From NCBI GenBank assembly GCA_008632985.1, contig QPGO01000076.1, forward strand, positions 124,001 to 188,000: a stretch of 64,000 bases of DNA, written 5' to 3'. The stretch's first letter is position 1; each line of letters begins with the position of its first letter. The DNA comes from Psammoneis japonica (lineage: Eukaryota). Below, in pieces: positions 12,139 to 52,265 of the stretch. Both the position numbers and the translations under genes were made by a program. The notes below the pieces were generated by a model that worked only from the letters and a program-made list of their open reading frames with translations, was not told the origin of the DNA and made no database searches.

Positions 12139-12331
12139 CATGAAGTTTCTTGCGAAACGTGGTACAAATCCTTCCTCATTTGCAGGAACAGTATAGTAAG
12201 AATGCGCCTCCGTACTTCCTTCGGAAACGCCTATCCAATTGAACTCGTACACACTTTGCTCGATACTGTGAACTCTGATGTCAAGTTATATATATTGAGA
12301 ACCACTGTATAAGCAAACTATACGTCCTGGA

Positions 12332-22294: not shown

Positions 22295-22580
22295 ACACCA
22301 AAGGTCTCGTTGGGTGGGCTTCCTCGCCGGGGGCTGCGAGTTTCAAGTCACACGCTATTGCTACTAACTAGTTAGGGCCCTAAAGCATCAAGCGAATAAA
22401 TAGAAGAAGAACCATTGAGCTCTATCTACTCTACTAGTAGGACGTACAGCTCTCAAAGCCCTACTCTACTACCGTAGGGGGCCTATCTAGTAGCTACTAC
22501 TCCCCTTTTTGGTTTTGAGTCGGTGGATTCGACCAGCTGGTTTTTATCAGGAAAAGGCGGAAAAGGCAACATAAAAGTCC

Positions 22581-23084
22581 ATGGCGGATAAAGATAGAAG
22601 AGCGATAGAGTCCCGTCATATTGTTGAAGACAATATGGGCAAAACAACTGCTGAACCCATTCTAATCATTGTGGTTGCTGTCTCATTTTGTGTGGTAGTT
22701 GTTGTGATTGGCGTGTGGCTAATTGCGAAACGACGAAATAATACGCAAAGGTTATCAATCTGTCAGAAGTGCTGCTCACGATGCTGCTCTCGGTGCTGCC
22801 GCCGCCGAGAAGAAGAAAGTGAAACCTGTGCAGACGCCAACGATTTGAAAGAGTTTTTGTTCACTGTCCGACAAGACGATGTGGTTGTGGACTCTGTGTT
22901 AGAAGAAGAAGAGCAGTCATTGTTGAGCGCTCGATTGTCATCTTTTTTCTTTGTGGATCTCCTCAAGAGTGAAAACAACCACCAAGCCAAACTGTCCATG
23001 CTGGAACCGGCAAGAAACAGCGAGGAAGATAGCTCCGAAATCAGTATTCACGACAATGGGCATTTCGAAGAACCGCTGCTTTGA
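22581..23084 (+). CDS. Single-pass membrane protein with Cys-rich juxtamembrane segment
   Basis: Hydrophobic ILIIVVAVSFCVVVVVIGVWLIA followed by KRR and CCSRCCSRCC. Confidence 0.6.
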   Translation: MADKDRRAIESRHIVEDNMGKTTAEPILIIVVAVSFCVVVVVIGVWLIAKRRNNTQRLSICQKCCSRCCSRCCRRREEESETCADANDLKEFLFTVRQDDVVVDSVLEEEEQSLLSARLSSFFFVDLLKSENNHQAKLSMLEPARNSEEDSSEISIHDNGHFEEPLL

Positions 23085-25776: not shown

Positions 25777-26207
25777 CAAGGTCTACAGAAGAAGAGAGAT
25801 AGAAAGGAGTTTCGCCGGCAAGGCTTTGCAAATCGATGTACAGACTCAGTCTCTTCAACGCGAAATAATACATTGCAATAGTGCATCGCAACAAGTCTTT
25901 TGAACTAATCCGTTACCACGAACGTTTTTCTCCGACTCAAGTTGGCTCATTGCGAGCCGCCTGGTTACGTGTCACCGACCCCAAAGGCACAAAAGCCTTC
26001 CTTAGGAGTGAGGAGATTCAGGGTGGACTTCTTTGATGCAATTGTTTTGGTAACACCGGCCTTCTCGTACGATCATCAGTGGATCCGCCTGCTCCATTGA
26101 CTTGAGTAGCTCGGTCCGCACTGCCGTCGTTCTCTCGGGTGGGGGCTTGTCAAGCACCATAGCCGCCTCAATGCCAGATGATATTACTTTCTTTCGAAGT
26201 TCTTAAC

Positions 26208-26385
26208 GGTTACGAACCCCAGTGGATAGGCAGCTAGCAAATCGAACTGTGTCTGGGCAAAACGGAGTTGAACTGATGCCATTCTCAGATTGCACTGAAG
26301 GAAGACAGATGCCCCGCATATGGCGACTTTTTAGTGGGCGATGAATGACGACGGCCACTACCGACCTGTGTATGTACCTGTAGCG
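26208..26385 (-). repeat. Diverged ~180-bp copy of the 3' end of the class C GPCR gene
   Basis: Aligns with ~31711-31885 (VQSENGI...VRF.SCLSTG in both). Confidence 0.85.
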
Positions 26386-27914
26386 ATTCTCCGCCTTATC
26401 TTTCAATTATTAGGCTCCTTCAGGTGACCACTTCATTCAATGCTCACGGATGGGTTTCGTAACGGATGCCGAGATTTTCGGCTGCGTCTATAGAATCTGA
26501 CGACTGAAATGCGCGCGCATCGTGATCGTTCCGAATGAGTCCGAATCGGGCGGGATGCTCGAGATGCTATCCCATTTACTCACAACCCGCTTCCTCCTTC
26601 CACGACAATTCAATCTTATCAAATAGAAATGAGCTGGGTTCAGCAGCAACAACAACATACGCCATGTGAACGTTTTTTCACGCCTTTTTTATTCATCAGC
26701 TTCATTTCTCACCATGTCGATGTGACGCGACGACCGACGAATCACCGTCATTGAGTGCTCTCTCGCTAAGTCCTCCACAATGTTCACAAAATTCACACCA
26801 AAAAAATGCCATTCAATTTACGCAAAGCCCTTTCACAGTCGCGTGTGAGCGCAGGTGAAGGACGGATCGAGTTGCATGGCTCAATGGGGGGCATGCCGTC
26901 AAAAGTCTGTGGTGCTCTGAGCCAACTGCGGCAGCTCCACTTCCTTCTTCAAATGTCAAAGGATGGTGGAAAAGACCTCGAGTCCCTTCATGCAATGCGG
27001 CTCAACTTGGCGCATGAGATCCAAGGAGCGTTTGGTGCTTTTGCAGCCAGCGACTTCAAAGCATGCCCAACCGACCTGATGAAGCACCCATCCTGTTTCA
27101 ATTGCTTGGGCAAGAGGGGGCAGAGAATGTCCGCAAAGCCTCACAGCAGCGGTGCTGCTGGCACACCAAGAAGGACATGTGGTGGTGCAAGCAATCCAAG
27201 GTGAATGCAAATGATTTTTGCACTCAAAAACAAACACTGTAAATGTCCTTGTTCAAATGCCGAGGCAACTCTGGGACAAACACGGGGATGACCCCGGTCG
27301 GGCGGTTGCTGCATTTTTTAGCTCAAATTTGGCCAGTTTGGCTCGTGATTTTCTGCTGAAAAATTGATTTGCCGCACTTGGAACATGGCAACAATGGTGG
27401 CTTCAGATGATCCAGGCAAGTGCAGTGGAGGTGGTCCATCTGCCAACTCTTGCTTGTTTTGCATTCCTCATGTGTCAAAGATGTCATGTGCATCAAAAGT
27501 TTGTAGACGGCATGCTGCGTTTTTGAGAGCAAACAGTGCTTGTCAGCCAGTGCCATTGCGACACATCCATGATGACACTCACGCTTTGTTGCTTTGTGTT
27601 TTTCAGGCAAGGCAAAGAAGTGCTGCAAAAGACTGAAAATACAAGATGAGAGGACTCAACAGAGTCATGCAAAGGCAATGGCGGCTGAGAAGAAGATGCT
27701 TTCAGCAGCCTTGCTTCAAGCCAGAAGTGACTCCAACTGCTGAGTTTCCAGTGCATGCTCTGAGTTGCACAAGTGTGTCCCATGTGCCAAGAGCCATGGG
27801 GAAAGATTTCCAATGGCAGACTCTGACTCGCCATTGGTGGGAGCCAAAGATGCCAAGTCACCAACCCTTCAATCCCTCCCAGAGTTGTCAAATGGTTTCT
27901 TTGATGAAATCATG

Positions 27915-29060
27915 TCAAACGGGCGGCAACTCACTGGTTTCTGCTGCGGCATCAACCGAAACTTTGGGAAGCTCTGTCAAGGATGGACGAGCGCCATTTT
28001 TGTTCCACACATCACACGGTGACCACAACAAAGCTGTGGTGTCAGCATCAAGTGGCTCCATGACGTTTGATGTGGACAGATTCAAGACTGTGATGACAGA
28101 CGCACCATGCATGTCAAATGAAGTCATGCAGCTGCCCACAAAAATGCGAGTCACTGTGCAACCATGTTGCTTTTCCAGACAGCCCAAAATGGAGTTGGTC
28201 AAGATTGACATTTCAAAATTAGATGTCCAACCCAAATTGTTGATGAGGACACAGAGATTGTCTCCTTTTTCAAACATGGGAATGACTGCTTCTGATTCAT
28301 TGACACGCCCATGCTTGTGAGTCGCATCAATCATCTCTTTTGCAAGTTCCTTGCTTGACAAAAGTGCAGACTGCTTTGCCCCAGCTTTGCCATGAAGTCC
28401 AAGACCAATTTCAATCATGTTGTCATCATCCAGACAATCTTTGACCGCCACTGCACCAGGCACCATGACTGCATCAAGCGCCACACCCAATGTTCCCATG
28501 TGTTTTGCAGTCAACGCAGCAAAGTTTGCCACACCCTGCAAAGATTTCCCTTCGGCAGCAGCCGCTCCTGCAATCTGGTGAACAAGGGTGGTTTTGGAAA
28601 TGCCTCAAGCTCCAGCGACACCCTTGGTTCTCTCCGAGGCTGTGTCATTGGCTGCAACCACCACTTGGCAGGAAACACCTTCCAAGCTGGCTCGCTCACA
28701 TGCCGCTCCAAAGCTCAAACAGTTGCCGACGCAATTCTTTGCCACTGGCAGAATGGGGCTTGTTTTCCCACACAAAGTGGCACAAATTGCAGCCAAGATG
28801 GCGGCAACAGAGGGAGATGCAAAGATTCCTCCTGGAATGGCTCCACTGAGCATGCCGTTGCCTGTCCATCCTGCATGACTCGGCTCATGTCCGCCACCAC
28901 CACTGCTGAAAATCTGAACACCCGCTCTGGCCTTCAAGTTGCTCTTGAGCACAACATGGTGATTTTTCAATTTTGTGAGGCAAGTCAGATGTTGCAACAG
29001 CAGACCAGCAATGAATTCATTGACAGCATCGGCTGGATCGTTCTTGATGATCATTTTTTC
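27915..29060 (-). pseudogene. Dihydroxyacetone kinase (DhaK/DAK1 domain) pseudogene inside a TpA-depleted island
   Basis: SGGGGHEPSHAG, GGIFASPS, KNCVGNCLSFG (cf. KNYTGDRLNFG), IEIGLGLHGKAG, VLINNLG, SCMTSFDMHGASV; frameshift near 28600. Confidence 0.9.
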
Positions 29061-30252
29061 GGCTTGGACGGCATGACACTTTTCTGCTGTGCGAGCTGAG
29101 CCAAGCAACAGCCAACCATTTTGCGCGAGGGTCAATCACTGCTGGGAAGACTTGCATGGACATTCTCAGCAAGAAGCTCCTTTGCACAAGGGCTGTCGCT
29201 CAAGAGCACGGAACAAAAGCTGCGGCCCAACCAACCAGCTGTGACCTGTCTTGTGAGTCGCAGCCGAGACAGCGAGTTCTTTGAGAATTGCGCTCACTTT
29301 GCTCTGCTTGTCAATGACCATGGCATCATTGCACACTTTGTTGGAGTTCTTGAAGATGCACATGCAAACGCGGAACAGGGGCCCACTTGTTGATGGATCA
29401 TCGCCGAGTGCATTTTGCTCTTGCTGGAGCGGTCGGCTGAGTGCAAGAGTCAGTTGAATGGAGTTCACCAGCGATTGGAGTGCACACAGTGTGATGGAAA
29501 AAACTGCTGTTGTGACAAGCAGAAAGCTTTCATCAGCTTCCACAGTTTGCCCACACCGCTGCGATGGCTTGGTCGCCCACATGCAGTCATCTGGGTTTGG
29601 TTTGACTTTCTCCGCACCCGCGGGACAAAATTTTTTGTCCCGGTGTTTTCTCCACTCAACTCAAGTGCAGCTGTCATTTCATTGTCATTTGTGTGTTTAA
29701 TCACACATTTCCTGGTGTTGTGTCATTTGAATGGAAAATGTTGCCTTTCCTCTTTGTCAGCGACTTCAGAAAAATGACTCGGCTTGACACATTTCGACCC
29801 ACGGACATTTGGTTTGGACACTTGCAAAGCAGGGTGCACAGCCGCCCAGCTGACAAAACCCATGCACAATGCAAAACTTTGAACAGGACCGAAGATTTCG
29901 GAAATTGTCGCCAAAAGTCACTCTTCCATGGTGTCTGCACACATCTCCAGCATGTGTGCACATCTGCCCGTCACTTTTTTGCACCCTGTTGCCCTGGTCC
30001 ATTCAGATGTGTCGTCCGGTTTTGCACATGGCACGGATCTCTTCGCAGTTGTCCAAACTGCAGGTCCAAAGTCTGTCCTGGGGCTTGCTGTGCCATTGGA
30101 CAAAACTGTCACGGTCGAAACAGCAAACATTTATTTGTATTTATTTGAATAGAAAAGTTTTGTTATTTATGTTGGCATTCTTCATAATGGAAAATGTTGT
30201 TTAAATACGGCAATCGCGCGAAACCGCATGGGTACGGAAAAAGTTTTAACGC

Positions 30253-30341: not shown

Positions 30342-31710
30342 ACAGAGAGTCACAGTGGAGCGCCGACCCACACTCGGCCTTGTCTTTTTGATGAGCAATT
30401 CATTGAAGACACGGATGTTGCTTTCAGGAGTCCGGATTCTTCGGCAAGGCCCTTGCTTGGTTTGGCCAGAAGCGGGGTTGTTGTTGGGTCTTTTCGCTTG
30501 GCGGCAAACCCGTGCTTTGGCGTGAGAAGTGTGCTCTGTCTTGGGTGGTGTGCTGTGTGTTTGATCTTTGTCGAGAAAGGCACCCGGCGCGGCACACCCC
30601 TTTGTTCCGAAGCACGGAGCAGTGTTTTTGCACTTTATGGTGTGTGCTGACAGGTTTTTCGATCTCTGTGACAGGTGTGCATGATACTTATGACTGTCTT
30701 GTTCTGTAAGAGTGGAATGATTGCCTCAGGGCAGATGCGAGCGACCGCATCATCATCGTGTTTCTGTGGTGATGTCGAGCACTAAGTCGGTGGGGTGTAG
30801 CCGTTGTATCGTCAAGGGTTTGGCTTTTCGGTCGGCTGTGGATATTCGGTACTCGCCATGGGAATGGCCACGACTCGAGCATTTGGAATCAATCCTTTAT
30901 CATCCTCCATGGCAGGTCGCCTTCTCTCTCGACGAGCACAGAGCAACAAGAAGAAATTCAAGGAATTTGACAAGAGCCCTCGCTTGAAACGCTTTCTATT
31001 AGCACTCGGAATCTCACTGTTTCATGCCTTGCTCCTGCACTTTACGCACTCCGTATTGTCGCAGATGGTGCCGTCACCAAAGGATGAATTGGCTTGGCGT
31101 TGTTCTGGAGATCAAACAAATACTTTGCTGGTCCTACGTTGTGAGTTTATCGTGTTTGTCGCCACCCAAACTACTTGGGAGACGCATTGTTTTGTTTAGG
31201 CTTGGCGGTCAGCGGTGTGGCGAGCTTTGGTTCCAACATAATTACACGTCACGACCAGCATTGGATTGTATGGTATTTTCTCCATAATGACTTTCCAAGA
31301 AAGCCGAGAAACTGTGGAAATGGACGATGAACAAGGACCTCCACATCGATTTTCCTGTGCGTAAAAAGCGAGACTTTTACTCCATCTTGGCGAACGCCAT
31401 GAACGGTTACATTCGCATCAAGTCTTCAATTGAGGTATTTCTCATGGTCAATAATAACTGTAGCAGTTCCGGTCGAGTACGAGAAGAAGGATGAACGAGA
31501 ACTATAACATCATGTATGTTGTACAACGGGTGATCTTGCGTTGTAGCTAGTAACTCTTACTCTAGAGAATCTATGGAGACGATACAGCTAGATAGTAGTA
31601 ACTCCGAATATTCTAGTCTAGAGCCAAGACTGAAAGTAGGAAAAAGAGGAGAATCAGTTTTTCTTTCAAAGCGACAGGATCGCCTTTGGGAGACGATGTT
31701 GTCTCGACGC

Positions 31711-34394
31711 TTACGATCCAGTGGATAGGCAGCTGGTAAATCGAACTGTGGCTGGGCGAGTCGGAGTTGAACCGATGCCATTCTCAGATTGCACAGTAGG
31801 AAGACACGACACCCCATATGACGACGCTTTAACAGGCGATGAATGACGACGGCCATTACTAGCCTTTGTACCAGACGTCTGTGTGGGTCGACCTGGAAAC
31901 GCCGGCCTTGCACCGAACGCCATTGGTGCCACTCCGTCTCTGTCGCTCAAATACATTGATGTTCGAACTGCCCGTCGTCTTGTGGATTCCAGAGGCCGTG
32001 CGTTCCGATTTATGTACTTTGGGACAAACAGTGGTACCTGGATGGCGAGGCAAATGATGGTGACCAATATAGAATGCATCAAAAAGTAAGCAGATGGAAT
32101 ATCCGCCACCACAACCAAAATTGGTACTGCCAAAATAAAGGCTTCAACTAAACTCGCCAGAGAGATGGTAATGTAGGTACTTTCGTTGAAATTTGAGGGA
32201 GGAATATTTCGTGCCTTGTACGCTTGGTAGGTGGCAGTCATCAGAGCGATCACATTCACCACGGCAAGACAGGACACAAAGATCCGTTGTTTCGTCGAAT
32301 CCAAGGCCAGGCATGTCCCGTAGGACTCATTAGACCGTCCAAACTCATCTGATTTTGTTTTTTGAACTCGCGTCCATTGAAGCGGCGCTATTATTGTCCA
32401 AGCTATCAGAATGGAAAGATTGAGACCCATCAAAACTACAAAAGGTAGCAACACGTCGTTGGCTCGTATCTTGACTCTTCGGAACTCGCGGCTCATTGCA
32501 AAGACTCGGTTGAGTCTCCACGTCTTGGAGAAGAGCGCCGAGAATGACGTAACGAATCCAATAGACAATAGCCACGGTGTCGCCATGCAAGCAATGTCTA
32601 ATCCACGTTGAGAAACTGGTTCTTGTAAGCCCTGAGGTATTATCGAGCTTGCCATGATAAAGGTCCCAACACACAGTTTAACAAGAAACACTGGTTGTGA
32701 TGCACGAACAACGGGCTTATTCCGATACAAAACGGTCCATATCAGCCACCCCAAAGACATAATCATGACAATAGTAGCGAGGCCGTATCCAAGGACATGC
32801 ACCCATGGACTAATCAAGTTCATATCTTCTTCCAGTGGTGGCAATGCCAATGGGGGCGTAATATCTGGACTTCCCGCATACACAAAGGGTCTGACTTCCT
32901 CAATACTACCGGCCAAATCAATGACAGCCGCTACTTGAGATTCAAATTGTATGAATCCATCTTGCATTTTTCCGTTTGAAATAACATTGTGGACAGCATA
33001 AATCAAGCTATCCGAACTTCGTGTTCCCGTGTCAACATTAAACTCAACAGTTCCGGAAACGCCCTCAAATGAAGTATTCAACAGAGATTCATAAAGCTCA
33101 CGTCCTGAAAAGAAATCGTTTTCTGCGTTGCATGCTGCCAATCCCATGGCCATGACGGCGTCGTAATTCAAGTATTGATACAGCGACGAACCCGGCATTT
33201 CAAAATCGTAATTATCAAACAGTTCAGGTTCAGTCTTTGAGAGAGCAGAGCACAACGAGATTGAGACGGGGTAGAATAAGTCAAAAGCCGTATCATGCTG
33301 CTATTATCTCAATTGTGAGGACTTACGTGTCTTGAAATAAAATACTCATGCAATGTGTCATTGGTACTAAACTCCTGCAGTGCCGCGTCAAACTCTGGAT
33401 GAGACGGTACGTCAATTACCACCACGCCAACACCATGAATGGCTCGAACCAAATCCATATCTGTAACTGCATTCAATCGAAAGCTTGGATTGAGCAATTC
33501 CAATGTTGATTCCGACAAGAGCCATACATAACCTGTATTCCCAACTATCCCACGTTGATAGGCTTGTATCAGCATTTCCCTGTAGGTTCGTGGATTCGGT
33601 ATGCCGAAGAAATACTTTAATTTTGATCTTTCCAGCACATCGATTGCTTTATCCAAACTGCCCTCCACATCATCTTCATACGGTGCCGAAACTACCGTTA
33701 TGCCCATCTCCCGAGCTAGCTCTAACACGTCTTTGTGGAAATAAGTTCCGTAATCGTCTCGCACATAAATGACTCCAAAATTCTCTACATTCAAACTCCT
33801 CAGGTACAGAAGGACGGCATGAGCATCGCCTCGATTGTTGGGTACGGTTCTAACAAAATAAGTAAACGCATCCTTATTGTCGAGTGTTGCAGAAGTGGAG
33901 GTTGCTGATATTTGAGGGGTCTGGTACACACTTCCCAGGACTGCTACACTGGAAGACACAACGGAGCGAGCGGCACCCACCAGCGCTGTTGGCTTTACGG
34001 ATGATTGAGTTTCGGCTTTATGATATTTTCCTGACGCGTGTATTGGACTGAACTGTGTATCCATGTAATCGACAGTCCAGTAAACATTGCAATTCTCCAG
34101 AAGCGAAGTCAACTGGGGCAGTACTTTTGAATCTCTCTGATTGAAATGAACCATGGCGAGAAAACCGCTTGCTTCCAACCCAATTCGAAAGTCAATCGGT
34201 TGTCGAATACCTTGAACTGAATCGAGAGATGAGAGCGGAAGAAGACTGGTCAATTGGCATAATCGAACCGTGTCGTTCTCATCGTCATCCAGCACTTGAA
34301 TCACTGTAGAATCTTGTCGCGACTCGCTGTTCTTAGCACTGGAACTGTTTCGTAATTCATCATAGTAACCAAGCGGTCTGTTTGACAACGCCAT
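31711..34394 (-). CDS. Class C (GABA-B-like) GPCR: ANF-receptor/Venus flytrap domain + 7TM; 2 exons (intron 33326-33235)
   Basis: LVGAARSVVS, PQISATSTSATLDNKDAFTYFVRTVP, FEGVSGTVEF, VVRASQPVFL, SALFSKTWRL, FNESTYI; start codon uncertain. Confidence 0.9.
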
Positions 34395-35020
34395 CTTGAG
34401 ACTTAGCGAAAGTTTAACCCAACGAATAAGACACAAGGAGATCAATCAGACTTAGGGCTCTGATGTTGCAATTTTGCACAGAGGCGTGACACATCACGCA
34501 ACTGCACACTGAACACCGACCGGTTGCTGTTTCTCAGTCACGAAGAAAGAGGGATCACGTCATTGGGTGAAAGATGTGGATAAATGTGTCTTTACAATTA
34601 TATTGTTAAAAATGTCCATGAGTCTTTGTTGGACAAATTTGTGCAAATCCGAAGGTCCAGTTGGCGCGGTTGAGTTGATTTGGAGAGATTTACAACTTTC
34701 TTTTTGTGAAAATCTGTGTGTGTGTTGGCCTGTTTTGGCAGTTTTGAGATGGGGCAGAACCACGAACCACCAATGACATCAGCTGTCGTGGTTTTGCATC
34801 ATCGATTGTTTTTTGTCTGTGCAAAATGATGGCAAGGCAGCGGTGGCACTGTTCGTTGTTTCAAACAAATGGGCCGAGGCACACCAGCTGCAGAGCTGGC
34901 TGTGTTGGAGCTGAGCCAGCACAGCCAAGCCTTTGCTTGCGCTCACCTTGCTTTGCCTGTGCTTTTTTTCTCAACAGCACAGTTTGGCCAGTCAAGGACA
35001 TTGTGTTTGTCTTGCTTTGC

Positions 35021-35577
35021 ACACCAACTTTGAGACAAAACTTGGCATGTCAACTTTGGAGCGAAGCTCAGTGCGCCGACTTTGGAGCGAGACTCGGCGC
35101 GCCAACTTTGGGGCGAAACTCGGCACGCCAACTTTGAAACAAAACTTGGCGCGCCAACTTTGGGGCAAAACTTGTCATGCCAACTTTGAGGCAAAACTTG
35201 GCATGCCAACTTTGGGGCAAAACTTGGCGCACCAACTTTGAAGGAAAACTTGGCATGCCAACTTTGGGGCAAAACTTGGCACGTCAACTTTGGCACGAAA
35301 CTCAGCGTGCCAACTTTGGAGCAAAACTTGACACGCCAATTTTGGCACAAAACTCAGCATGCCAACTTTGGGGTGAAACTTGGCGTGCCAACTTTGGGGC
35401 AAAACTTGGCATGCCAACTGTGGAGCAAAACTTGGTGTGCCAACTTTGGGGCAAAACTTGGCACCAAAACTTGGCATGCCAACTTTGAGGCAAAACTTGG
35501 CATGCAAGCAAAACTCAGCATGCCAACTTTGGGGCAAATCTTGGCATGCCAACTTTGTAGTGAAACTTGGCATGCCA
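35021..35577 (+). repeat. ~26-bp tandem array (GCCAACTTTGGGGCAAAACTTGGCAT)
   Basis: About 20 degenerate copies; unit has GCCAA...TTGGC inverted ends. Confidence 0.9.
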
Positions 35578-36344
35578 GAGGGGTCATTCCCTGGCACTTT
35601 TTTCTTGTCACCGCCGGCAGCCCAGCGGATGACAGCAGCCACAAAGTTGGACAACAGCAGCACTCACAGACTCCCAGCTTTGGATGGCATGCCACCTTCA
35701 CCCACACCTGAGATCTCAGCTGTCTGGGCAAATTGTTGAATGTGATGGCGGTGTGTCTCCAGCTGGAAAGGCAGCACACACACGCAAAAGCTGGTCCAAC
35801 ACTTCAAGGCTGGCAGCAATTGAGCATCCTGGCACAGCAATGCATTCCAGGTCTGGGTGGGACCTTGCGCTGCTGAACTGTGACATCGACAGTTTTTTGC
35901 ATGACTTTTGCAAACTTTTGTGTCGTTTTACAGTGCAATTGTCAGGCGATCCATTCAACAACTTTTGATGTTTTTTTCTTCTTTGCCATTCTTGAGTGTC
36001 TTGAGAATGGCGCAGGGAAGGCGAGCTGTCCAAAACTTTGAGCACGAACAGGGATGTGTTCACTGCAAACTTGGCCGCCTGTTTTCATGTCGAGGACAAA
36101 TGTGTCCATTGACCAGAGCACGAACTGCAGAGCTTGCGTGCAGAATTCCACGGGGCAACTGTCACAAAAAGTCCCGCCTGGCAGGACTGGAACCCACCCA
36201 GCAACCTCAACATCATGCCCAGCTTTTCTTTGCACATGTGTTGCCAGCATGCAGTGGCCCCTGTCACAGCACGGCTCTTGGTGGCCACAGCTGCTTGCGC
36301 AATGCTCAAGGTTTTGCATGCAGCCAAAACTGGTTTGCAGCTGA

Positions 36345-36776
36345 TGCCCTGTGCATGCACCAGGCGCTGAAAAAGAAGATGTGTTGCGACTTTGTCGTTG
36401 TGAAAATTATGAGCTAGTTTAGAGTGGAGAAAATGGGATCGTGCGAACAGGGAATCTTGCCAAATCCCCATTCGTTCGCATTTGGATCGCATCAAATCGA
36501 TCGTGCGTTCGCATTGTGGATCGTGCGAATCAAGCCATCACGCGCCATGCACGAGTGATGTCATCGTGTGGAATCACGCCACCATCGTGGGCCAGACGAC
36601 GGGCCAGTGTGCTTCACACGGACGCTCTCTTAGCATCCTTCTGGAATTGCCCAAGACCTGGAGCCACGCCCTCCTGTGGTCGTGCTTCCCAGGCACGTGT
36701 TAACAATGCTGCGTTGCCACGCACAAGAGGCTCATGCACGGTCTCGCCGTGTTGTCCAGCAGCGAGGCATGCTGCA
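36345..36776 (-). repeat. 3' LTR of the Gypsy element
   Basis: Gap-free match to 41130-41561. Confidence 0.95.
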
Positions 36777-36815
36777 CACTCCCCCATGATCAGGGCCGTT
36801 AAGTGACAGGATGTC

Positions 36816-39800
36816 TCACTGGTGACAGGGCACAATCTGCCGTAGATTGCACGTGTCCATCAGTGCTCCGTTCTGGATGTGCAGCGTGCCATTGTCACAT
36901 GCACGGACAACTCTGGCGGGTCCTGCATGGCTGTCAGAACCGCACTTGGAGGATTGTTCCTGTTTGACAAGTGCCAATTGCCCTGCGGTGTGTTGACACT
37001 CCTTGCGTTTCTGATTTTCACGCTTGTTGTTTAAGTGGATGAGCTTCTGCTTTCTGGTTTCTATGTGCTTCCACTTGGCACGATGGGCAACAGACAAAAC
37101 CGCATCGCGTCCGAAGACCAATTGCATGGGACTTGCACGCGTGGTCGTGTGTGCCGCAGCTCTAACAGCGAAGGCTGCTGCAGAGAGGATGCCACTCCAT
37201 GGGTCATCTTCGTCCAGTTCCACATCCTGTGCTGAAAAGGAACGCACCATGTCACCAAGTGTCTGGTGTGCACGTTCCACTGTGGCATTTGCCTGTGGAT
37301 TCCGTTTGCTTGTGGGTTTCTTCAAAATCCCACAGTCATTTTTAATCATCTGGCTAAATTCTGCCACAAATTCTGTCCCACGGTCATGAACCACCTGGGT
37401 TGGCCACGGACATCTGCATGGCCACGTTTGTTCCACGACGTTTGCTGCGACGTCTGCGCGTTTCGTAGACACTTCTTTAATCTCGAACCACCCGGTTGCT
37501 GGGTCAATCATTGTGACTGCCCACAATTGCAAGGTGTCCTTTCCGCGTCTTTGAATTTTACATGGCCCCATCACATCTGTGCACAGAGTCTCCCATGGAA
37601 TTATCTCTGCGACCTTTTCTGGCAGCTTCCCATGACGCTGCGTTCGGCGTTTTGTCTTCTGGCATCGATCGCACTTGACGCACGTAGAATGCACCGTAGA
37701 CCTCATGCCAGGCCAATGGAAGTGCTGGGCAACAGACATTTCCGTGCGTGTCTCACCTGGATGACACAGTGTCTCGTGGTGCCATTCAGTTAGCGGAACC
37801 TGCAATGACTGTGGTGCTGCGATTTTGTCCTTATGACAGATTAACTGTCGTGATGACCCTCCCCCACGATGCGCGCGAATGGAGCAGTCGGACGAGACCT
37901 TGGCTCTTGAGAGTGGGCGCTTGTCCTTTTGTTGTGCTTTTTGAATGCGCTTGAAGCCAATGGGCAGAGATGGCTCATCTTGCGCGTCTGCATTAAAAGC
38001 TTCATGCAAAGGACGACTCGATGGAGTGTCTTTTACATCCGGATTAGCCTCGGAAGGCAAGCTGGGTGCCAGTCGAAGGCGACTAAGAGCGTCAGCGACT
38101 GGGTTGTGGGCACCCTCAACATGGCGTAATTCGGGACCGCATTCTTCGCACATCAACCGCCAGCGCATGACGCGCTCGGTGTTGAACACTTTGTGCGCAA
38201 GATTTTTATGATCAGCATGTGCAATTGTGTGATGACCAAGGAGAATCGTTCGAAATTCTTTCAACGTCTCCACAATGGCGAGCAATTCTCTCTCCGTTGT
38301 TGCACAATTTAATTGCACACTGTCAAGCTTTCTGCTGTAAAAGGCGATGGGTTTGTTGTCTTGGGATGCAACTGCTCCCAATTGACATTTAGAGGCATCG
38401 GCGTGCACCTCAAAGGGTTCACTAAAATCAGGATGTGACAACAAAACATCATCCGACATTGCCCGTTCAATGGTTTCGAACGCCTCATCTTCAACGGACG
38501 TCCACTCCCACTTAACAGTCTCGCTTGCGAGTCGTGTCAGCGGAGCCAAGACTTCAGAACGTCCAATCCACATGTCGCGGCAGCAGTTCACCATGCCAAC
38601 AAATGAACGTGGGTCGCGTTTGTTGGTTGGGGTCGCGATTCACTCAATGGCATCAACTTTGTCAGGTGTTGGTCGCATTCCGTCTCTGTTGACCAGATGA
38701 CCCAAGCACTCTAATTGGGTTTGACAGAAGTGAGATTTAGTTGCGTCAACTTTTAGTCCTGCTTTCTGGACCCTCAACAAAACTTCTTCAAGTTTGTTGA
38801 GGTGATCTTCATGGGTGCCTTTCGTCATGACGAGAAGGTCATCTAAGTGCGTTCGAACGAACGACAGATCTTCAAATGAGCCTGACATGCGTTCTTGGAA
38901 AATGTCTGGTGAATTGCACAATCCCATGGGCAATGCCTGCATCTCATGCTTGCCCCACGGGAAGATGAGCGTGCAGAGCTTCTTGCTGTCAGTGTCCAAT
39001 CGGATGTGACAATGGCCCATGTTTAAATCCAGCGATGCAGCCCACACAAAGCCTTCGAGCTTGAGCAGCACATCTTGGATGTGAGGAATCGGATGAGGCA
39101 ATCGCTTGATCCGTTTGTTCAGCTCTCTGAAATCATCAACAAAGCGTGCCGTTAAATCTTTCTTCGGTGTGATGGATGATGGAGCTGCCCATTGGGATCG
39201 GTTGATGCGTTTGAGAACACCGACACGCACTGGGCATTCTACTTCTTTACGCAGCGTAGCTTCGCACGCACGAGGCACTTCATGCGGACGAGCGTGGTGT
39301 GGTTCTACACCCTCCTTGAGTTGGATGTGGAAGGGTTCTCCCTTCCATTCTCCTGATGTCCCATCAAACAAGGACTCATGGCGTTTCAACAGTGCCAAAA
39401 GGTCATTTTGTTGAACTGCAGAAAGTCCCATTGCCCCTCGCGTTGTGTCCTCGAGGCAGGCCGGTGTGCACTTGGCGTCCAAAATGCACAAAATCCGGTC
39501 GGTTTCCGAAGATGAGGCTTCTGGATCTTGAAGATAGAAGGAGGTTTCCACCGCAGCATCTACGTGCCTCATTGGTGCTTCTCCATTGACCAATGGCCAC
39601 TCTGTCATCTGTTTGGAGAAGACAACATCAATGCCTTGCGTCTCCAGAATGTCACGCCCAACAATCACATCGCACTTGCCCAACTTTCCGTTGTGCACGT
39701 GGACGGCATGCTCAAGTTCTGCAGTTTTGGATGATTCTGGCAACCAAAATTTAATGGCACAGTCGTCAGACGCACTGAACGAGCCTGCTGCCGTGGTCCA

Positions 39801-41035
39801 GTTTGTCTCAGCCATTGAATGGCTTCGCAGACGTTTGCAGTGTCGACTGTCGAGTAGAGTGCTGCTGGTGCCACTGTCTGGCAGTGCCTCAACAGTTTGA
39901 GCCTTGCCCTTGCCATGTTTGGCATTCATGGCCACAAACAAGATTGGAGCAAGATGAGTCTTTTTAACTCGTTTGCGGGATTGGCCTGCAACACGTGTGC
40001 GTAATTCAATTGTTCATCAATGCATTCATCCAATGCATTGAAACTGCCTGCATCGTGTCGGCAAGTGTCCGAGTCTTCGGAATCACTTAAATTGAGGTCG
40101 CGGAAGTGATTGAGCTCCTCCTCGCGTGCCTTGCGCTTTTTCTGAGCGTTGGCAAAGAACTCCTCGACCTTCGATCCGATGAGAGCATCAATGTCTTCCT
40201 CATTCTGAGGTTTCATGTCAGGCTCACTGCCTTCGTCACTGGAATGTCCAGTCTTGACACGTTTCACGTGGGTGTTCGGTTGGGTCGTGATCAACGACTC
40301 AGAATTGTCCGTTCTACGTCCCCGCTTGCGTGGGACCCTAGCATGTTGGTCGCGGTTGCCTTCGGTGAGCTCGACCTGCTCGGTGCGCTCGCAGAACTGC
40401 ACCAATTCGGCGACAGCATGCGCCAACGGGTCAAAATTCTGTAGCGTCATGAACTTCTGCCATGCGTTCGGCACACCGCACTCGAACATGTCGCACAGTT
40501 CGTCATCAGGCAATGGTGCCGGTGTTTCTCCATCCTCCGTCACGGGTGGAAACTGAGAGACACAGCCGTTAATTTCAACAGCCCTTGCGACGTAGTCACG
40601 AGTGGAAACCTCTGCGGGCTTGCGCATGAAGCGCCGCAGATGACGCTTCTGCAATGGTGCCGCCCTGTGAGGGAAGACACTTTCCTTTAGCTTCGCGACG
40701 CATGCTGCGCACGCAGCATTGGTTTGGGATGCCTGCTTGTCAGCGGCATTGTCAAATGACGTCAGAGCATCGCCCTGTGGCAGGTCACGCACAAGGGCAA
40801 ATTTCGCTGGCCCGGTCGTGATGTTTTGTCCTTCGTGCACGCGATCCACGTTGCGCAGAAAGATTGGGAGTGTCTCGCATGCAGCCGTAGAAAGGTGCGG
40901 AATGCCCATCTCGTGCATTGGACTGTCCGGATCAGTGGGGTTGTTACGCAGCTTGAACGTCTGGTGCTCGCCCTGCTACAGCTCTTTCTTCTCCGGCCGT
41001 GCGAACGGAATCGGCGGCTCAACCCGCTTCTTCAT
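36816..41035 (-). pseudogene. gag-pol of the Gypsy element (stops, frameshifts, Tyr->Cys/His substitutions)
   Basis: PR 'ALPDSGT'; RT 'LDLNMGHCHI', 'RTHLDDLLV'; RH 'ADASKCQLGAV', 'ERELLAIV'; INT 'HHETLCHPG', 'DRGTEF', 'NPQANATVERAH'. Confidence 0.95.
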
Positions 41036-41129
41036 GGTCGTTTTAAGATTTGTCGGTCCTGCCAACATTTCGCAGTTTCGTTTCTGCAGATTTCGTTGCC
41101 TCGCACAACATGCGGGAGCAATGTCACTG

Positions 41130-41561
41130 TGCCCCATGCATGTGCTGGGCGCTGAAAAAGAAGATGTGTCAAGACTTTGTCGTTGTGAAAATTGTGAGCT
41201 AGTTTAGAGTAGAGAAAATGGGATCGTGCGAACAGGGAATCTTGCCAAATCCCTGTTCGTTCGCATTTGGATCGCATTAAATCGATCGTGCGTTCGCATT
41301 GTGGATCATGCGAATCAAGCCATCATGCGCCATGCACGAGTGATGTCATCGTGTGGAATCACGCTGCCATCGTGGGCCAGACGACGGGCCAGTGTGCTTC
41401 ACACGGATGCTCTCTTAGCATCCTTCTGGAATTGCCCAAGACCCAGAGCCATGCCCTCCTGTGGTCGTGCTTCCCAGGTGCGTGTTGACAATGCCACGTT
41501 GCCACGTGCAAGAGGCTCATGCACGGTCTCGCCGTGTTGTCCAGCAGCGAGGCATGCTGCA
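41130..41561 (-). repeat. 5' LTR of the Gypsy element
   Basis: Gap-free match to 36345-36776. Confidence 0.95.
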
Positions 41562-43989
41562 CTGACCCTGCTGCTGAACAACTTTGAAAACTTGCGCACC
41601 ACATCTGACCCTGCATCCTCAATTTTGAGCAGTCAGGCAATGACTGCACCATTGAAGAAAAGTGCCAATTAATGACTCACAACAGGGGGGGCACCACAAA
41701 GCCAGCAACACTCTCTCCAAGTGGCGGGCCACCTGAAATGAACTTGGCAGTTGTGTGCTGCCATGCTGTGCCATCTGCAAATTCTCATGACTGCCACATG
41801 GTGTGCTGGCATGTGCGTGCAAAATGACTTGGTGCACAACAACTTGCCAGATCCAGTGTCAAGCAAACATGTGATGGAAATCCACTGAGGTTGTGCCAGT
41901 CACTGACTTTCCAACAAAGAAGAAAATTGTGAGACAACCCACAACCCACATCTCATGTGCGCTGGGGCCAATGGACTGGCCCTGGCGCAACAGCTGTGGG
42001 CTCCTGCATGATCACACTTGCAGAGCTGCCACACTCAAAAGGTGCACAAATGTTGGCGAGTGCCCCTCAAATGAGACCAGCATTGGTTGGGCACCTCAAG
42101 TCCACACTGGCGGCAACCAGCAGGGCAAGAAAGCTGGCAGCTGCTGCGAGATTGGCAAGGTTCTTGACAGAGAGGGGTGCTGCAAGGAAGTGCTGGCAGA
42201 ATTTTGCAAAGCTCTTGCAATGGACAGCTTGTCCAGCTCATTTTTGGTGTGCCAGCACAAAGTTGTGCAGATCTGCACATGCAAGTTTCTGCGCATGTTT
42301 GTGCTGAAATTGTGGCAGTTGGGCCCATCAGCTCATTCAAATTTGTGCGGCAACCCACCCGCGCATGCCGCACTCACAATGATGATGACATAACGGCATT
42401 TTTTGTGCTCTGATGCCACCTTGCCACATCACATCTCCCTTGCCATGGAGTCTCAGAACATTGCTGACAACTGGTTCAAGAAAATGGCCAGTCGTGACCA
42501 AGTTGCAGGGGTTTTGTTTCGCCACAAAAAGACGCTGTTGGACCCATCAACATGACGCACAATGGTTGGTGTCGGAATTGCCATGATGCGCTGACCCTGT
42601 TTGAAGCATCTTTGGTGGTGTTGTGATGTTGGCATGCAGCATGGAAGACTCAGCAGTTCTCAATGTGGTGGCATGACGGCGGAGTTGGCTGGAGGCAAAG
42701 GAGGGCTCACCCTGAATGTGTGTGTGTGGATGCAAGAACCGCAAATGATGCATTGGCCCCATTGCTGGAAGTTGCCTCAGCAGCACTGTGGCAAACACAG
42801 CCGGCATGGATGACTCAGCAGAGCTCACGCTGGCGGCATGACAGCAAATTTGGTCTGATCCCAAGGAGGGCTTGTTCTGAAAAGAGGTTGCTCATCGAGG
42901 AGCTGTGGTTGGCTGCTTTGTTGTCCTTTTCTCCATGCAGCAGCAGCTTGGAGGGCTCTGCTTTGTGAGCGCAAACAAGCGATGCTTCCAAAAAGATTCA
43001 TGGTTGTGGACATTGACCAGTCACATGACAAATCTGTGACTGAAACAAAAATGCTGAAGAGCTGTCAAGTCGGCGGCATTGTCATCTTGTTGAATGAGCC
43101 AGAAGTCTCATCATTTGCTCTTCTGCTGCAGAGAGCATTGATTGAATTGAACAGCAACTTGACAGAGAAGACATCAGCAACATTGGTGGAGGAATTGGCT
43201 GTGGTTGTCATCTGAGAATGACTCAAAGTGGGTGACGCATGCCTCTGTCTGTTGCGACCCAACAACACGCGAACAGCTGTGCAGTCTGTTGAAGCTTCTG
43301 ACCAGCTTTGAAGGCAACACATTTTGTCTGTCAACAGACCAACCATCTGCACGTCATGCAACAACAGTGTTTTGGCATTTTTGCTTTGCACCCACAGTGT
43401 GTTGGCAACGCCGCTTGCTCTCTTGCAAACTCTCTTCATGTCTCGCGCCATTCTTGTGTTGGAGCTTGCAGAGCTCAAATTGAATTTCTGCTGGCACGCC
43501 AAAAATGAAACTCGGCAAGCTGTCCATTTGCCAAGCTGCTTGTGTGGGAAGGATCGTCCATGGACATCACAGCTGCCTGATGCTGATGATGATGCTCAAG
43601 CACAGCACACTGGCACTCTGCATTTGAGCCAGCAAGAGAGGCCTTTGCTGCTTTCTCTCTTTCCTTCCCTTGGCCCTGTGGCTCCAAACCTGATCCATGA
43701 GCTTTTGTGCAAAACCTGAGCTCCGCAGCTTTCTGCACACTGTGGCTTTTGTGCAAAATTGTGCCCCGCAGCTTTCTGTGCCCAGCAGCTTTTGTGCAAA
43801 ACCTGTGCCCTGCAGCTTTCTCCCTTGAGTGTGGGCAACTTTTGCAACCCTCCCTCTTGGGCACAGCATTTTTTGAATGTTGGCACACCAGCTTTGGCAC
43901 AAAACTTTGCATGGAAAGTTGTGTTTTCAAGCAAAAAATGGAAATTCTGAGTGAGTTTTGACCGCATGCAATGCCAGTTGCGCAGCTGC

Positions 43990-45770
43990 ACGTGCTTTTT
44001 CCATGTGACGAGCTCACGCATTTTTGACACAACTTTTGACACAACTTTTCACACGGGTCAAAGTTGTGTCACATTTTCAAAAATGCACATCCAGGCACAT
44101 TTAAAATTCCTGCAAGACTTCCAGTGCAAATTCTGCACAAAGAAATGGAGCCCAGGTGTGAATTTTGAAAGTTGTGCTGCACATTTTTAAAAACGCATGT
44201 GCGGGTTCTGTTGCACACAGAAGTCCAGTGGATCCTGCATCCTGCCACAATGTCAAAGTTGGGACATTTTCAACTGTGCACACCTGGATCTTTGCACAAC
44301 TCTTTTTTGTCCCACACATTTTTTGTGTCAAAAGTTTGTTTTTTTGCGAGGTGGTGTCGGCAATGAATTTGTGTCATCCAACAGATTTTGTGCTGGCAGG
44401 CAAAATTCACATCAATTTTGACATGCAGGTGGTGAAAATGGCAATTTCCCACAGACCCGTCGGCATGCCAAGTTTTGCTCCAAAGTTGGCACACCAAGAT
44501 TTGTGCTGAAGTTGGTGCACCAAAACATGTGCCAAAGTTGGCATGCCAAGTTTTGACCCAAAGCTGGCATGCCCAGTTTTGCTCTAAAGTTGGCATGCCC
44601 AGTTTTGCTCTAAAGTTGGCATGCCAAGTTTTGCCCCACAGTTGGCATGCCGTGTTTTGTGCCAAAGTTTGGGTGCCGGGTTTGCTCCAAAGTTGGCAGT
44701 GCCAGTTTTGTGCCAAAGCTGGCATGCCAAGTTTTGAGCCAAAGTTGTCATGTCAAGTTTTGCTGCAAAGTTGGTTTGCCAAGTTTTGTGCCAAAGTTGG
44801 CATGAGGAATTTTTCTCCAAAGTTGGCATGCCAAGTTTCACACCAAAGTTGGCATGCCAAGTTCTGCCCCAAAGTTGGCATGCCAAGTTTTGTGCCAAAG
44901 TTGGCATGCCAAGTTTTGGGTCTGCAGGAAATCATGTGTTCAAGCAAAAAACAGAGAGTCTGTGTGAGATTTGAGGGCCATTTGCAACAACAATGGCGCA
45001 GCCACATTGCTTTTCCTGTGTGACAAGCTTGCGTGTTTTTAACACAACTTTGGAACAGCTTTTGTCACAAATCAAAGTTGTGCCACAGTTTCAAAAATGC
45101 ACACCTGGGTGATGTCAGAATTCCTGCGAGACTTTCAGTGCAAATTCCACACTAAAAAAGAAAACCCAGATGTGCACTTTGAAAGTTGTGCCACACATTT
45201 TGAAAAATGTGCACGCGGGTTCTGTCGCATGTGGAAGTCTGCTGCATTCCTGCACAACACAAAAGTTGGGACATTTTCAATTGTGCACATGCCCGGGTCT
45301 TTGCACAACTTTTTTTGCCCAACACATTTTGGTGTCGTGTGTCAGCAACAAGTTTGTCTCATCTGACAGATTTTGTGCTGGCAGGCATGGCTTGCATCAA
45401 TTTTGATGTGCAGGTGGTGGAAATGGCAATTTCTCGCGCAGACCCTTTGCACCAAAGTTGGCATGCCAAGTTTTGCCCCAAATTTGGCATGTTGAGTCTT
45501 GCTCCAAAAAGGTGGTGTGTTGAGTTTTGCTCCAAAGTTGGTGTGCTGAGTTTTGTGCCAAAGTTGGCAAGACCAGTTTTGCTCCAATGTCGGCATGCTG
45601 AGTTTTGCTGCAATTTTTGCAAAGCAGCTTTTTCCCCAAAGTTGGTGTGACATGTTTTGTGCCCCAGTGTTGGCATGCCAAGTTTTGCCCCAAAGTTGGT
45701 GTGCCAAGTTTCCCCCCCAACAGTGGGCATGTCAAGTTTTGTGCCAAAAAGTTGGCACTTTTGCGCCACA
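43990..45770 (-). repeat. Two ~1-kb tandem units, each ending in a reverse-complement array of the 26-bp repeat (~44462-44915, ~45450-45760)
   Basis: 'tcaaagttgtg..ca..tttcaaaaatgcac' at ~44060 and ~45072; 'gtcaaagttgggacattttcaa' / 'acaaaagttgggacattttcaa' at ~44252 and ~45259. Confidence 0.85.
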
Positions 45771-46663
45771 AAGAGCTGGCACAACAGGGGATCCGTCACA
45801 AGCCTTGTCGGTCATTGGCGATGGCAATTTTCACAGTGGAGTGGTCCAAAAGATTGATCTGGCTGACCATCTTTTCCAACCAAATGTCACAATCAGAAAG
45901 ATGCATTCACAGTGTGGTGGTCAAGAGCTTGCACCCACCAACGGCCACACACTCGGGCCCCTCTTCTCTGCACACTTCTGGAGCGCAACAAGTTTCTCCA
46001 TTGACAAACCATTGCGGCAGGTTTTGTTTCATCAACCTTGGGTGTGTTTGCTTTTGCAGCCCACAACCTTGTGCAAACTGACAGAAGCTGCCCCCCCCCC
46101 CCCCTTCACTCATTTTTGTTGTGGGCCTTGGTCACTCCTCGCTGGAGGAGAGCGGCTTCTGCACCACCCTCCTGCTCTGGCTGTGCTTGCTCCTCATTGA
46201 TTGCAGAGCTTGTGGTTGTTGTCTTGTCTTCACCACAGATTCGATGAAGTGGGTCCGATTGACAAAGTTGTGTGCTTCTGCACGAGCAGTTTCCAGTTGG
46301 GCCGGACGAGCATTGAATTCGACAGGTTTGCGATGAGGAGTCCTCCTCGTCGTCCGCCACCCCCCGCGGCGCGCCACGCACGGCGCACGCAGCCGCAGCC
46401 GCAGGTTATTGTTGTTCCCACCCGTCGAACTCATCGCCCATCGCACATCAACGCTATGAAGAGGACATGGGAAGGCACGGGGAATGCTTTCCTATTCCCT
46501 GGATGTCGACTGATGAGACTCCATTCTTCTCTTTGTATGGCTTTGAGTGTGAATGTTGCGTGGTGTGCTAGACACTGCTGAGTTATTACCGTTTTTGCGG
46601 TAGACACCGCATAAAAATGAGACAAACGCGGAGGTTATTGCTTAGCCGTACCAACTCATCCTG

Positions 46664-50149: not shown

Positions 50150-50820
50150 TGGAATTGTTCGACATGTGCACACAATGCAACAATGACAACGACTCCATGC
50201 GTCGCACAGGAGTGACCTCACACTGAGACCCCCACATCAATGGGAGAATCCAAAGCCCAGTGGATCAGAATTGAAGATCTTCTACTGTTGCAAAAAGGCA
50301 AGAACATGGCAAAAGTGAAAGTTGCCAAAAAGAGCTGGCACGCAGGTTTGCCACCAACATGTGCTCTCCAGCTTCGGGTGGGACCTTGCACTGCTGGACT
50401 GTGACATTTGTGTTTTTTTATTTGCACCACATGCCATGCAGCTGCATGACTCTGATGGTGGCATTTTGCACCATTTTGCAGCGCAGCCGTCGAGATGTGG
50501 TGTTTCTGGCTTGCTGTTTTGCTGACGATGCTGGCCAGCTGTTGTCAGCCACATCTGCGTCTCTGAGCAGCAGCACGCACTTGGCCTTCTGGATGAAAAC
50601 AAAAAAGGGAGTGTGTCTCTCTGTGCTGCAGATCTTTCCATGCTGGCTTCGCTGCTGCTGGCTTTTTGAGCACATCGCAAAATTGCGAGTCTTTCTGGTG
50701 TGCTGCTGGTTCTCTGAGAGATGGCGGTGACTCCTGACATTCCCATGTGCAGCATGAGTTCTTTTCACCATGGCAAGATTCCAATGAAGCCACGTTCCCC
50801 ACGACAAGCGCGGGGGGTGA
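50150..50820. mobile_element. Small TpA-depleted repeat fragment related to the 35.8-kb sequence
   Basis: 'gggtgggaccttgcactgctggactgtgacat' (~50376) vs 'gggtgggaccttgcgctgctgaactgtgacat' (~35855). Confidence 0.6.
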
Positions 50821-50988
50821 GATTAGATCTGTAAGAGTCAGCGAGTCTGTCAGACGTCAGAGATCTTCCAGCGATCTTTTGTCTGTTGAAGAGGAAAGAT
50901 ACGAGATCACCACGTGCCGATGCACGACTCGGTGCTCGATGCTTTCTCACAAAAGCTTGACATGTGATCCTTCTTCCTTGGATGCACC

Positions 50989-52234: not shown

Positions 52235-52265
52235 NNNNNNNNNNNNNNNNNNNNNNNNNNNNNNN
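52235..52265. other. Assembly gap (N run) after a poly-C tract
   Basis: Run of n characters. Confidence 0.99.

Follow-up and report, generated by a model that had tools for sequence, protein, structure and literature searches.

Why do the two long terminal repeats (LTRs) of one retrotransposon differ from each other at ten places by an exchange of TG for CA, and hardly anywhere by an ordinary substitution? The element that raises this question, a Ty3/gypsy retrotransposon, occupies positions 36345 to 41561 on the minus strand of a 64-kb stretch of Psammoneis japonica DNA (contig QPGO01000076.1, positions 124,001 to 188,000); this whole stretch of 64,000 nucleotides is referred to here as the window. 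A comparison of the LTRs, the coding sequence and the surrounding DNA makes it highly probable that the element inserted once and then underwent A:T-to-G:C mutation, specific to TpA, where it lay in the chromosome.

Anatomy of the element

The minus-strand element is a Ty3/gypsy LTR retrotransposon that stems from a single insertion event. It has TG...CA LTRs, a target-site duplication and the domain order protease, reverse transcriptase (RT), RNase H and integrase. A second copy was not found elsewhere in the 64-kb window. The features are listed from left to right, with dinucleotide content given as observed-to-expected ratio (O/E) and open reading frames abbreviated as ORFs.

34692..46406, no strand: composite TA-poor block holding the element; outside the element TA all but absent, CG O/E 0.3-0.5 and TG/CA O/E 1.7-2.0
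36341..36344, no strand: left copy of the target-site duplication CTGA, repeated after the right LTR
36345..36776, minus: left-hand LTR, 3' in the sense of the element, 432 bp, TG...CA; TA O/E 0.23, CG O/E 1.03
36777..36790, minus: putative polypurine-tract side, named from its minus-strand sequence ...GGGGGAG and adjoining the 3' LTR on the upstream side
36816..40013, minus: pol reading frame with protease DSG, RT, RNase H and integrase
36816-38594, minus: pol ORF with RNase H, integrase zinc-binding and integrase core domains (Pfam)
38640..38642, minus: TGA, the sole in-frame stop of pol; otherwise both pol pieces lie in one frame
38640-39941, minus: pol ORF with RVT_1 (Pfam)
38838-38849, minus: RT motif YxDD, reading HLDD
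39926..40975, minus: putative gag frame, overlapping pol in another frame, without Pfam match
39926-40918, minus: ORF taken as gag, upstream of pol, without Pfam match
41130..41561, minus: right-hand LTR, 5' in the sense of the element, 432 bp; TA O/E 0.22, CG O/E 0.91
41562..41565, no strand: right copy of the target-site duplication CTGA

The two LTRs differ at pyrimidine-purine steps

A gap-free alignment of the two LTRs (36345-36776 versus 41130-41561, 432 bp) gave 29 differing nucleotides, grouped in 18 runs. An earlier sequence-only reading of this DNA had sorted them into ten TG/CA doublets, four sites of TA versus TG/CA, four of CG versus TG/CA and one transversion, and our recount was identical. 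Nine runs were clean TG/CA doublets, and a tenth read TGC/CAA, a doublet with an adjacent C/A transversion at a CpG. The other runs were TA/TG (3), CA/TA (1), CG/TG (3) and CA/CG (1). Only 1 of the 29 differing nucleotides was not a transition within TA, CG, TG or CA steps, and the alignment held no transition outside pyrimidine-purine (YR) steps. When YR sites were paired between the LTRs, we counted 38 TG/TG, 30 CA/CA, 28 CG/CG, 10 CA/TG and 3 TA/TA pairs, along with 4 mixed pairs of TA and TG/CA and 4 of CG and TG/CA.

This distribution is far from random. Pyrimidine-purine steps cover 240 of the 432 bases yet contain all 29 differing nucleotides (binomial P ~1e-6 for at least 28 of 29 inside such steps). 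Random placement of 29 changes, simulated in 20,000 trials per setting, yielded a mean of 0.16-0.36 TG/CA doublets and a maximum of 5, versus the 10 observed. The ten doublets are oriented 4:6, without strand polarity. A model of reverse-transcription polarity, in which the 5' LTR receives TG and the 3' LTR CA, is ruled out by this 4:6 orientation.

We propose that the Ty3/gypsy element inserted once, duplicating CTGA, and that A:T-to-G:C changes at TpA would then have occurred in place. Since TA is self-complementary, a hit on the top strand would give TG and a hit on the bottom strand CA, and both products would then be inert to the process. Each LTR would thus resolve its TA sites independently. 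A site hit in both LTRs would be invisible in half of the cases (TG/TG or CA/CA) and appear as a TG/CA doublet in the other half, and a site hit in one LTR only would be seen as TA versus TG/CA.

The direction of change is away from TA

Taken alone, the doublets fit an origin from TA as well as from CG, and the sequence-only reading had left the choice undecided; the evidence now favours TA. In pol, Tyr makes up 2 of 1066 residues (0.2%), Cys 3.3% and His 4.9%; the medians among the 120 best homologues are 4.1%, 1.35% and 2.6%, respectively. Of the 28 conserved Tyr (TAY) columns, defined by Tyr in at least 70% of these homologues, 12 read Cys (TGY) in the element and 12 His (CAY); one is Tyr, and Phe, Trp and Met occur once each. 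Conserved Arg columns are kept at 34 of 37, with one reading Cys. The equal numbers of Cys and His, together with the 4:6 doublets, bear out the earlier proposal that the LTRs were hit independently and on either strand after insertion.

The same direction is seen when conserved positions of all kinds are considered. The element mismatches at 127 of 551 conserved columns; one change from TG/CA to TA would undo 56 of these mismatches, one from TG/CA to CG would undo 3, and another single transition 7. The remaining 61 are not a single transition, as expected because the family is only 59% identical to its nearest relatives. Composition agrees: TA is depleted in the element (O/E 0.22-0.23) and CG is not (O/E 0.89-1.03). 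In this copy, then, most TA sites were converted, equally to TG and CA, and CG was hardly affected. A one-rate TA model fits the LTR pair with ~24 ancestral TA sites and p = 0.79, close to the TA loss estimated from the coding part. Most likely, then, the LTR doublets descend from TA, not from CG.

TA loss is confined to blocks and depends on context

The element lies in the third of five sharp-edged TA-poor blocks in the window (14792-20400, 26820-30131, 34692-46406, 50275-50838 and 60008-62098). In these blocks TA O/E is 0.01-0.12 (0.01-0.05 in the four largest, with 0-2 TA per 500 bp), CG O/E 0.2-0.5, and TG and CA O/E 1.7-2.0; genic DNA of the window has a TA O/E of 0.5-0.7 and a CG O/E near 1. 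The element is intermediate in composition between the third block and genic DNA, and composition steps at the LTR edges, so that the element is read as a younger insertion into older, more decayed DNA. Next to the right LTR, 41562-43900 has only 2 TA (O/E 0.01). TpA hypermutation is limited to the discrete blocks, two of which hold gypsy-type pol domains and one a Dak1 copy that is not obviously foreign. Repeat pairs inside TA-free blocks carry TG/CA doublets as well (3 and 17 in two other pairs), and a pair outside the blocks has none.

Loss of TA depends on the flanking bases (R, purine; Y, pyrimidine; W, A or T). TA sites surviving in the element comprise 0 RTAY, 28 mixed and 36 YTAR, compared with 548, 916 and 258 in genic DNA (chi-square P = 3e-19); survivors in the old blocks comprise 1, 7 and 21. 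The density of YTAR is 6.9 per kb in the element, 6.6 per kb in genic DNA and ~1.2 per kb in the old blocks. Three of the LTR doublets, if read as TA, are GTAC, a class without survivors. If read as CG, the LTR doublets are mostly of the GCGC, CCGC and CCGG type, which are among the best-surviving CG contexts of the old blocks (ratio to genic DNA 0.93 for GCGC, 0.75 for CCGC, 0.41 for CCGG, against 0.08 for ACGT). CpG loss in the TA-poor blocks is likewise context-dependent, with ACGT, ACGA/TCGT and TCGA at 0.08-0.17 of genic density.

Several of the blocks have recognizable content. The first (14792-20400) holds an older degraded gypsy-type element on the minus strand, with integrase at 16522-17082 and RT at 17393-18166; it has 12 TA in 5.5 kb, a CG O/E of 0.21 and no Tyr, and is rich in Cys and His. 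An internal repeat pair of this block (15356-15709 / 15863-16216) carries TG/CA doublets. The second block (26820-30131) contains a Dak1 (dihydroxyacetone-kinase) pseudogene in two minus-strand ORFs (27918-28604 and 28608-29135; domain matches E 2e-39 and 7e-30), which lacks Tyr, is rich in Cys and His and has little Arg. This copy is a hypermutated gene of cellular type and not obviously a transposon; duplicate, retrocopy and foreign DNA are all possible origins. The block is bracketed, in compositionally normal DNA, by a direct repeat of 168 bp (26206-26372 / 31707-31870, 83% identical), whose copies show ordinary differences and no TG/CA doublets. Arrays of a 26-bp satellite flank the gypsy element at 35007-35577, 44459-44918 and 45446-45757, partly inverted, and their units vary between CG, TG and CA at the same positions. 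These arrays may be subterminal arrays of a larger, older element that received the gypsy insertion. The fifth block has 1 TA in 1.9 kb.

A Pfam search of 95 ORFs from the TA-poor blocks returned only gypsy integrase and RT fragments and Dak1, with no match in 41562-46406, 50275-50838 or 60008-62098. Stops in the TA-free blocks are almost only TGA (282 TGA versus 22 TAA and TAG in the first block), and long ORFs occur in all frames.

Family copies and environmental relatives

Copies of the family were compared in contigs of one sequencing run (of 3, from one sample and study, with no RNA run listed), placed on the window at 80% likeness. Of these 6147 contigs, 1326 are at least 99% alike to the window. 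Transitions account for 502 of the variable places (A>G 118, T>C 108, C>T 148, G>A 128) and transversions for 23. Summed contig depth is ~10,000-23,000 in the element interior and 70,000-77,000 in the LTR, with single contigs near 65. As a rough figure, summed contig depth not being copy number, this amounts to hundreds of copies plus more solo LTRs.

The comparison with family states covers 40 of 527 variable places, all outside the LTRs. Among the places listed, TA in the family stands against TG/CA in the window at 36948 and 38747, and CG in the family stands against TG/CA in the window at 38317, 38572, 38642, 38828 and 40206. The change at 38642 gives the TGA stop in pol. Family contigs carry CGA at 38640..38642, and the stop therefore appears to be a CpG transition private to the window copy. 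At two doublets in gag (40214-40215 and 40225-40226) the window has CA, and the seven contigs there have TG or TA, never CG (T first in 7 of 7, followed by G in 6 and A in 1). The outcome that the sequence-only reading had named as refuting it, CG at the doublets with the TA alleles derived, was not encountered among the places listed.

A scan of metagenome contigs with the RNase H-integrase protein gave 18 loci. Four of these (L009, L010, L011 and L013), from microbial-mat metagenomes, are one locus (99.9% identical). It holds a gypsy element of ~6.5 kb (L013:2000-8500) with a TA O/E of 0.2-0.4 between normal flanks and a pol with 0.4% Tyr, 4.0% Cys and 4.2% His; L012 has a similar TA-erasure signature. 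Between samples, this element differs at 14 positions: 6 of TA versus TG/CA, 2 involving CG, 3 other transitions and 3 transversions. The share of TA is significant (P = 6e-5), and all 6 TA sites are of mixed context. This suggests that the process is ongoing in a wild population. No LTR pair was found in this locus by self-BLAST, gap-free repeats or relaxed BLAST. The loci L001-L008 and L014-L016 are not TA-poor, and L017-L018 have a near-normal TA O/E of 0.57-0.59, with partial Tyr loss only in L017.

Alternative explanations

The doublets could also have arisen from ancestral TG or CA, either by a tandem double transition or by a RIP-like step (RIP, repeat-induced point mutation) from CpA to TpA followed by rapid conversion on the other strand. 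Such a swap does not require a double hit at the same site, and one conserved His column in the element does read Cys. It needs a rate of 6.4% per TG/CA site per copy, against which the coding test speaks only weakly, with a swap in 1 of 68 conserved Cys, His, Trp, Gln and Met columns (P = 0.06). Against it, TA is destroyed in this DNA and not made, given that YTAR density in the element equals that of genic DNA and is lower in the old blocks. The swap is also at odds with the lack of non-YR transitions between the LTRs. Finally, the coding TA loss (~73-96%) already predicts about the observed number of doublets from ~20-24 ancestral TA sites, so that no extra process is needed. We consider the swap improbable.

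An origin of the doublets from CpG, by deamination of methylated CG on opposite strands in the two LTRs (TG in one, CA in the other), draws on a process that is real in this genome: the old blocks are CG-depleted, the 26-bp satellite has CG, TG and CA at the same positions, and CG stands opposite TG/CA at four LTR sites and, in the family comparison, at five internal ones. But the decay rate of CG read from the LTRs is 0.062 per copy, with 28 CG intact in both LTRs and 4 hit once, which predicts 0.063 discordant doublets (Poisson P for at least 10 = 2.5e-19). CG O/E in the element is ~0.9-1.0, and the doublet flanks are the contexts in which CG survives best. Arg was kept at 34 of 37 conserved columns and Tyr at 1 of 28, and C is the first base in 0 of 7 family contigs at the two gag doublets. 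Taken together, these results leave a CpG origin of the doublets with very little probability.

Equally hard to sustain is an artefact of assembly or base calling, in which silenced DNA would carry a modified base at TA that is read wrongly, as TG or CA according to strand. This, too, would give random TG and CA at TA sites. But independent k-mer contigs share 0.62 of sampled words with the window, and the contigs at least 99% alike to it number more than a thousand, as given above. Only 2 of 21 listed near-fixed differences inside the element restore TA; if TA were the true state everywhere, most of the best-supported differences would do so. The variable places are symmetric between strands, and independent metagenome assemblies carry the same signature.

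Editing before integration, of the RNA (ADAR-like) or of the cDNA (APOBEC-like, or by an adenine deaminase in the particle), is the most improbable: retroelements are known targets of RNA and cDNA editing, and ADAR prefers U before the edited A (main text of the preprint 10.64898/2026.01.13.699255), but any edit in the RNA or the first cDNA strand would end up in both LTRs, and all 18 of 18 such sites differ between them. Strand polarity is absent from doublets and Cys/His replacements alike, the Dak1 pseudogene and the satellite arrays are also TA-free, and at one fixed locus metagenome samples differ from each other by TA versus TG/CA. The sequence-only reading had argued against an edited RNA or cDNA intermediate, and the differing LTRs and the TA-free DNA that is not a retroelement uphold it. 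Editing of finished double-stranded cDNA may apply to this one element.

Mutation in place at TpA has to be weighed against a number of observations that do not sit well with it. A single rate fits the LTRs poorly: TA is intact in both at three sites (CTAG, TTAG and TTAG), which we ascribe to context heterogeneity, and CTAG survives in both, yet two of the doublets would have had CTAG as their ancestral context. At one conserved His column the element has Cys, and the coding test rejects the direct TG/CA swap only weakly, as noted above. The polarity of the ten LTR doublets is drawn from indirect evidence, the 40 listed places all lying outside the LTRs. Two of the places listed, 38046 and 40978, are TA in the window and TG in the family, and window and family are further separated by eight near-fixed non-YR transitions and two transversions; we read these differences, and the two window-TA sites, as lineage differences older than the insertion. 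The run shares 0.62 of sampled words, the window's own letter is missing from it at some places, and it is not an exact copy of the assembled genome. A rule for the hit strand (pyrimidine at +1 or purine at -2) held in 18 versus 10 cases and is not significant (P = 0.18). No enzyme was found, and no deaminase gene was present among the window ORFs scanned.

Proposed mechanism

The TpA process is fastest at RTAY and slowest at YTAR, and this context rule constrains any candidate enzyme. A second, slower process turns CG into TG/CA, most rapidly at WCGW, which is what deamination of methylated cytosine would produce; it accounts for the four LTR sites of CG versus TG/CA and the single stop in pol. 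Both processes stay within sharply bounded blocks of mobile or silenced DNA, and both lead to TG and CA. The sequence shows the pattern itself, its direction away from ancestral TA, its strand symmetry, its dependence on context and its restriction to blocks; the chemistry and the way in which the blocks are targeted are what we infer.

By analogy with the proposal made for Bigelowiella natans, the chemistry would most likely be adenine deamination in DNA by a TadA/ADAT2-like enzyme. In the anticodon loop of tRNA, TadA and ADAT2 naturally act on A34, the base after U33, and a T-A-C-like context was favoured by early base editors derived from TadA. A T at -1 combined with a pyrimidine at +1 would fit this context. 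Oxidised thymine mispairing with G may also be the cause and is indistinguishable here from adenine deamination.

A bolder and rather unlikely possibility is that a single deaminase system turns TA and CG, both self-complementary YR steps, into TG/CA, acting as a chromatin-guided DNA-editing defence in diatoms and perhaps in the wider stramenopile-alveolate-rhizarian group, with the Bigelowiella case as the same ancient system. TA would then be converted fast, RTAY first, and CG slowly, WCGW first. If true, such a system would inactivate mobile and silenced DNA without creating stop codons.

Age of the element and consequences for annotation

That the element is young and its LTR dating inflated had been proposed from the LTRs, and the figures agree: naive divergence is 6.7%, and it falls to 0.23% (1/432) when only the one background difference is counted. 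LTR dating would thus overestimate the age roughly 20- to 30-fold. Purely as an illustration, with rates borrowed from another organism (Bigelowiella, ~1.1e-5 per TpA per generation), a TA loss of 79% would take ~1.4e5 generations, over which 0.04 background LTR differences would be expected.

Changes from TA to TG or CA cannot create a stop and remove TAA and TAG; an intact ORF can therefore not be taken here as evidence of activity. Cys or His systematically take the place of Tyr, ORFs stay open in all frames, and gene predictions are inflated in TA-free blocks with their stops almost only TGA. LTR-divergence dating, repeat-age landscapes and protein-based annotation of transposons are biased in such genomes. 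Conversely, the number of TG/CA doublets in LTR pairs measures the process, an assay that needs nothing but sequence. The occurrence of the signature on diatom retrotransposons and on an environmental relative suggests that it is widespread in algae, and that transposons are targeted besides viruses.

Other features of the window

The window is gene-dense, with long uninterrupted ORFs, none of those searched having a near-identical database protein (best 52-70%). The best named relatives of a cyclin ORF are only diatoms (Fistulifera solaris at 55%, Mayamaea, Thalassiosira, Cyclotella, Skeletonema and others), and the lead from an Atlas comparison was Bacillariophyta. A UvrD-like ORF and an amidohydrolase ORF were of no help in placing the host, their best hits being unnamed or bacterial at 52-58% identity. 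The host is taken to be a diatom whose proteome is not annotated in the database searched, and not Bigelowiella. A run of 31 N lies at 52235-52265, just downstream of a UvrD-like helicase gene on the minus strand (ORFs 52425-53729 and 53746-55632).

Comparison with known systems

Fungal RIP resembles the process described here in being an in-place transition hypermutation of mobile or repeated DNA, with a dinucleotide context, action on either strand and sharp-edged blocks. The difference lies in the direction. According to the passages on RIP in PMC2621366, it changes C:G to T:A, mostly CpA to TpA, so that TA is enriched; here TA is erased (O/E 0.01-0.22 in affected DNA) and GC content raised. 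Decay of 5-methylcytosine at CpG likewise turns CG into TG or CA on either strand and covers four LTR sites, the CGA-to-TGA stop and the CG-poor blocks, but it cannot give the ten doublets or the changes from Tyr to Cys and His. Editing of retroelement intermediates by APOBEC and ADAR (for example PMC4866542) shares the clustered transitions in LTR retrotransposons and is read as host defence. Those edits are made before integration, are strand-polar and are common to both LTRs, whereas the hits here are LTR-specific and strand-symmetric.

The closest parallel comes from mutation-accumulation lines of Bigelowiella natans, as described in the main text of a recent preprint (Mettrop et al., bioRxiv 10.64898/2026.01.13.699255, 2026). 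Of 302 nuclear mutations, 231 fell in integrated giant-virus and virophage regions, and 230 of these 231 were A-to-G or T-to-C changes, all on TpA, at about 6e-7 per site per generation. The de novo rate was about 1000-fold above background, with only some lines active. TpA-poor coding sequences were enriched for reverse transcriptase and DDE domains, and the authors proposed an ADAT2-like adenine deaminase (10.64898/2026.01.13.699255). The words CpG, LTR and retrotransposon do not occur in the main text of that preprint. Full-text literature searches turned up TpA-erasing hypermutation of integrated DNA only there, and none for diatoms.

Measured against that main text, the two cases share A:T-to-G:C change restricted to TpA, yielding TpG or CpA by strand; confinement to discrete stretches of integrated foreign DNA; and TpA-poor, CpA- and TpG-rich sequences enriched for reverse transcriptase and transposase domains. 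They differ in host, here a diatom by the protein similarity of the one cyclin ORF, whereas B. natans is a chlorarachniophyte. What is hit here comprises LTR retrotransposons, satellite arrays and a Dak1 pseudogene, as opposed to integrated viral DNA, and erasure goes further, with a TA O/E of 0.01-0.05 in the four largest blocks versus 0.45 in the B. natans nucleocytoplasmic large DNA virus (NCLDV) region. The order RTAY > mixed > YTAR and the accompanying CpG loss are seen here, a comparison that extends to the main text of the B. natans preprint. From its sequence signature, the process appears to be of the same kind as the TpA hypermutation of B. natans, in a new lineage and a new class of targets.

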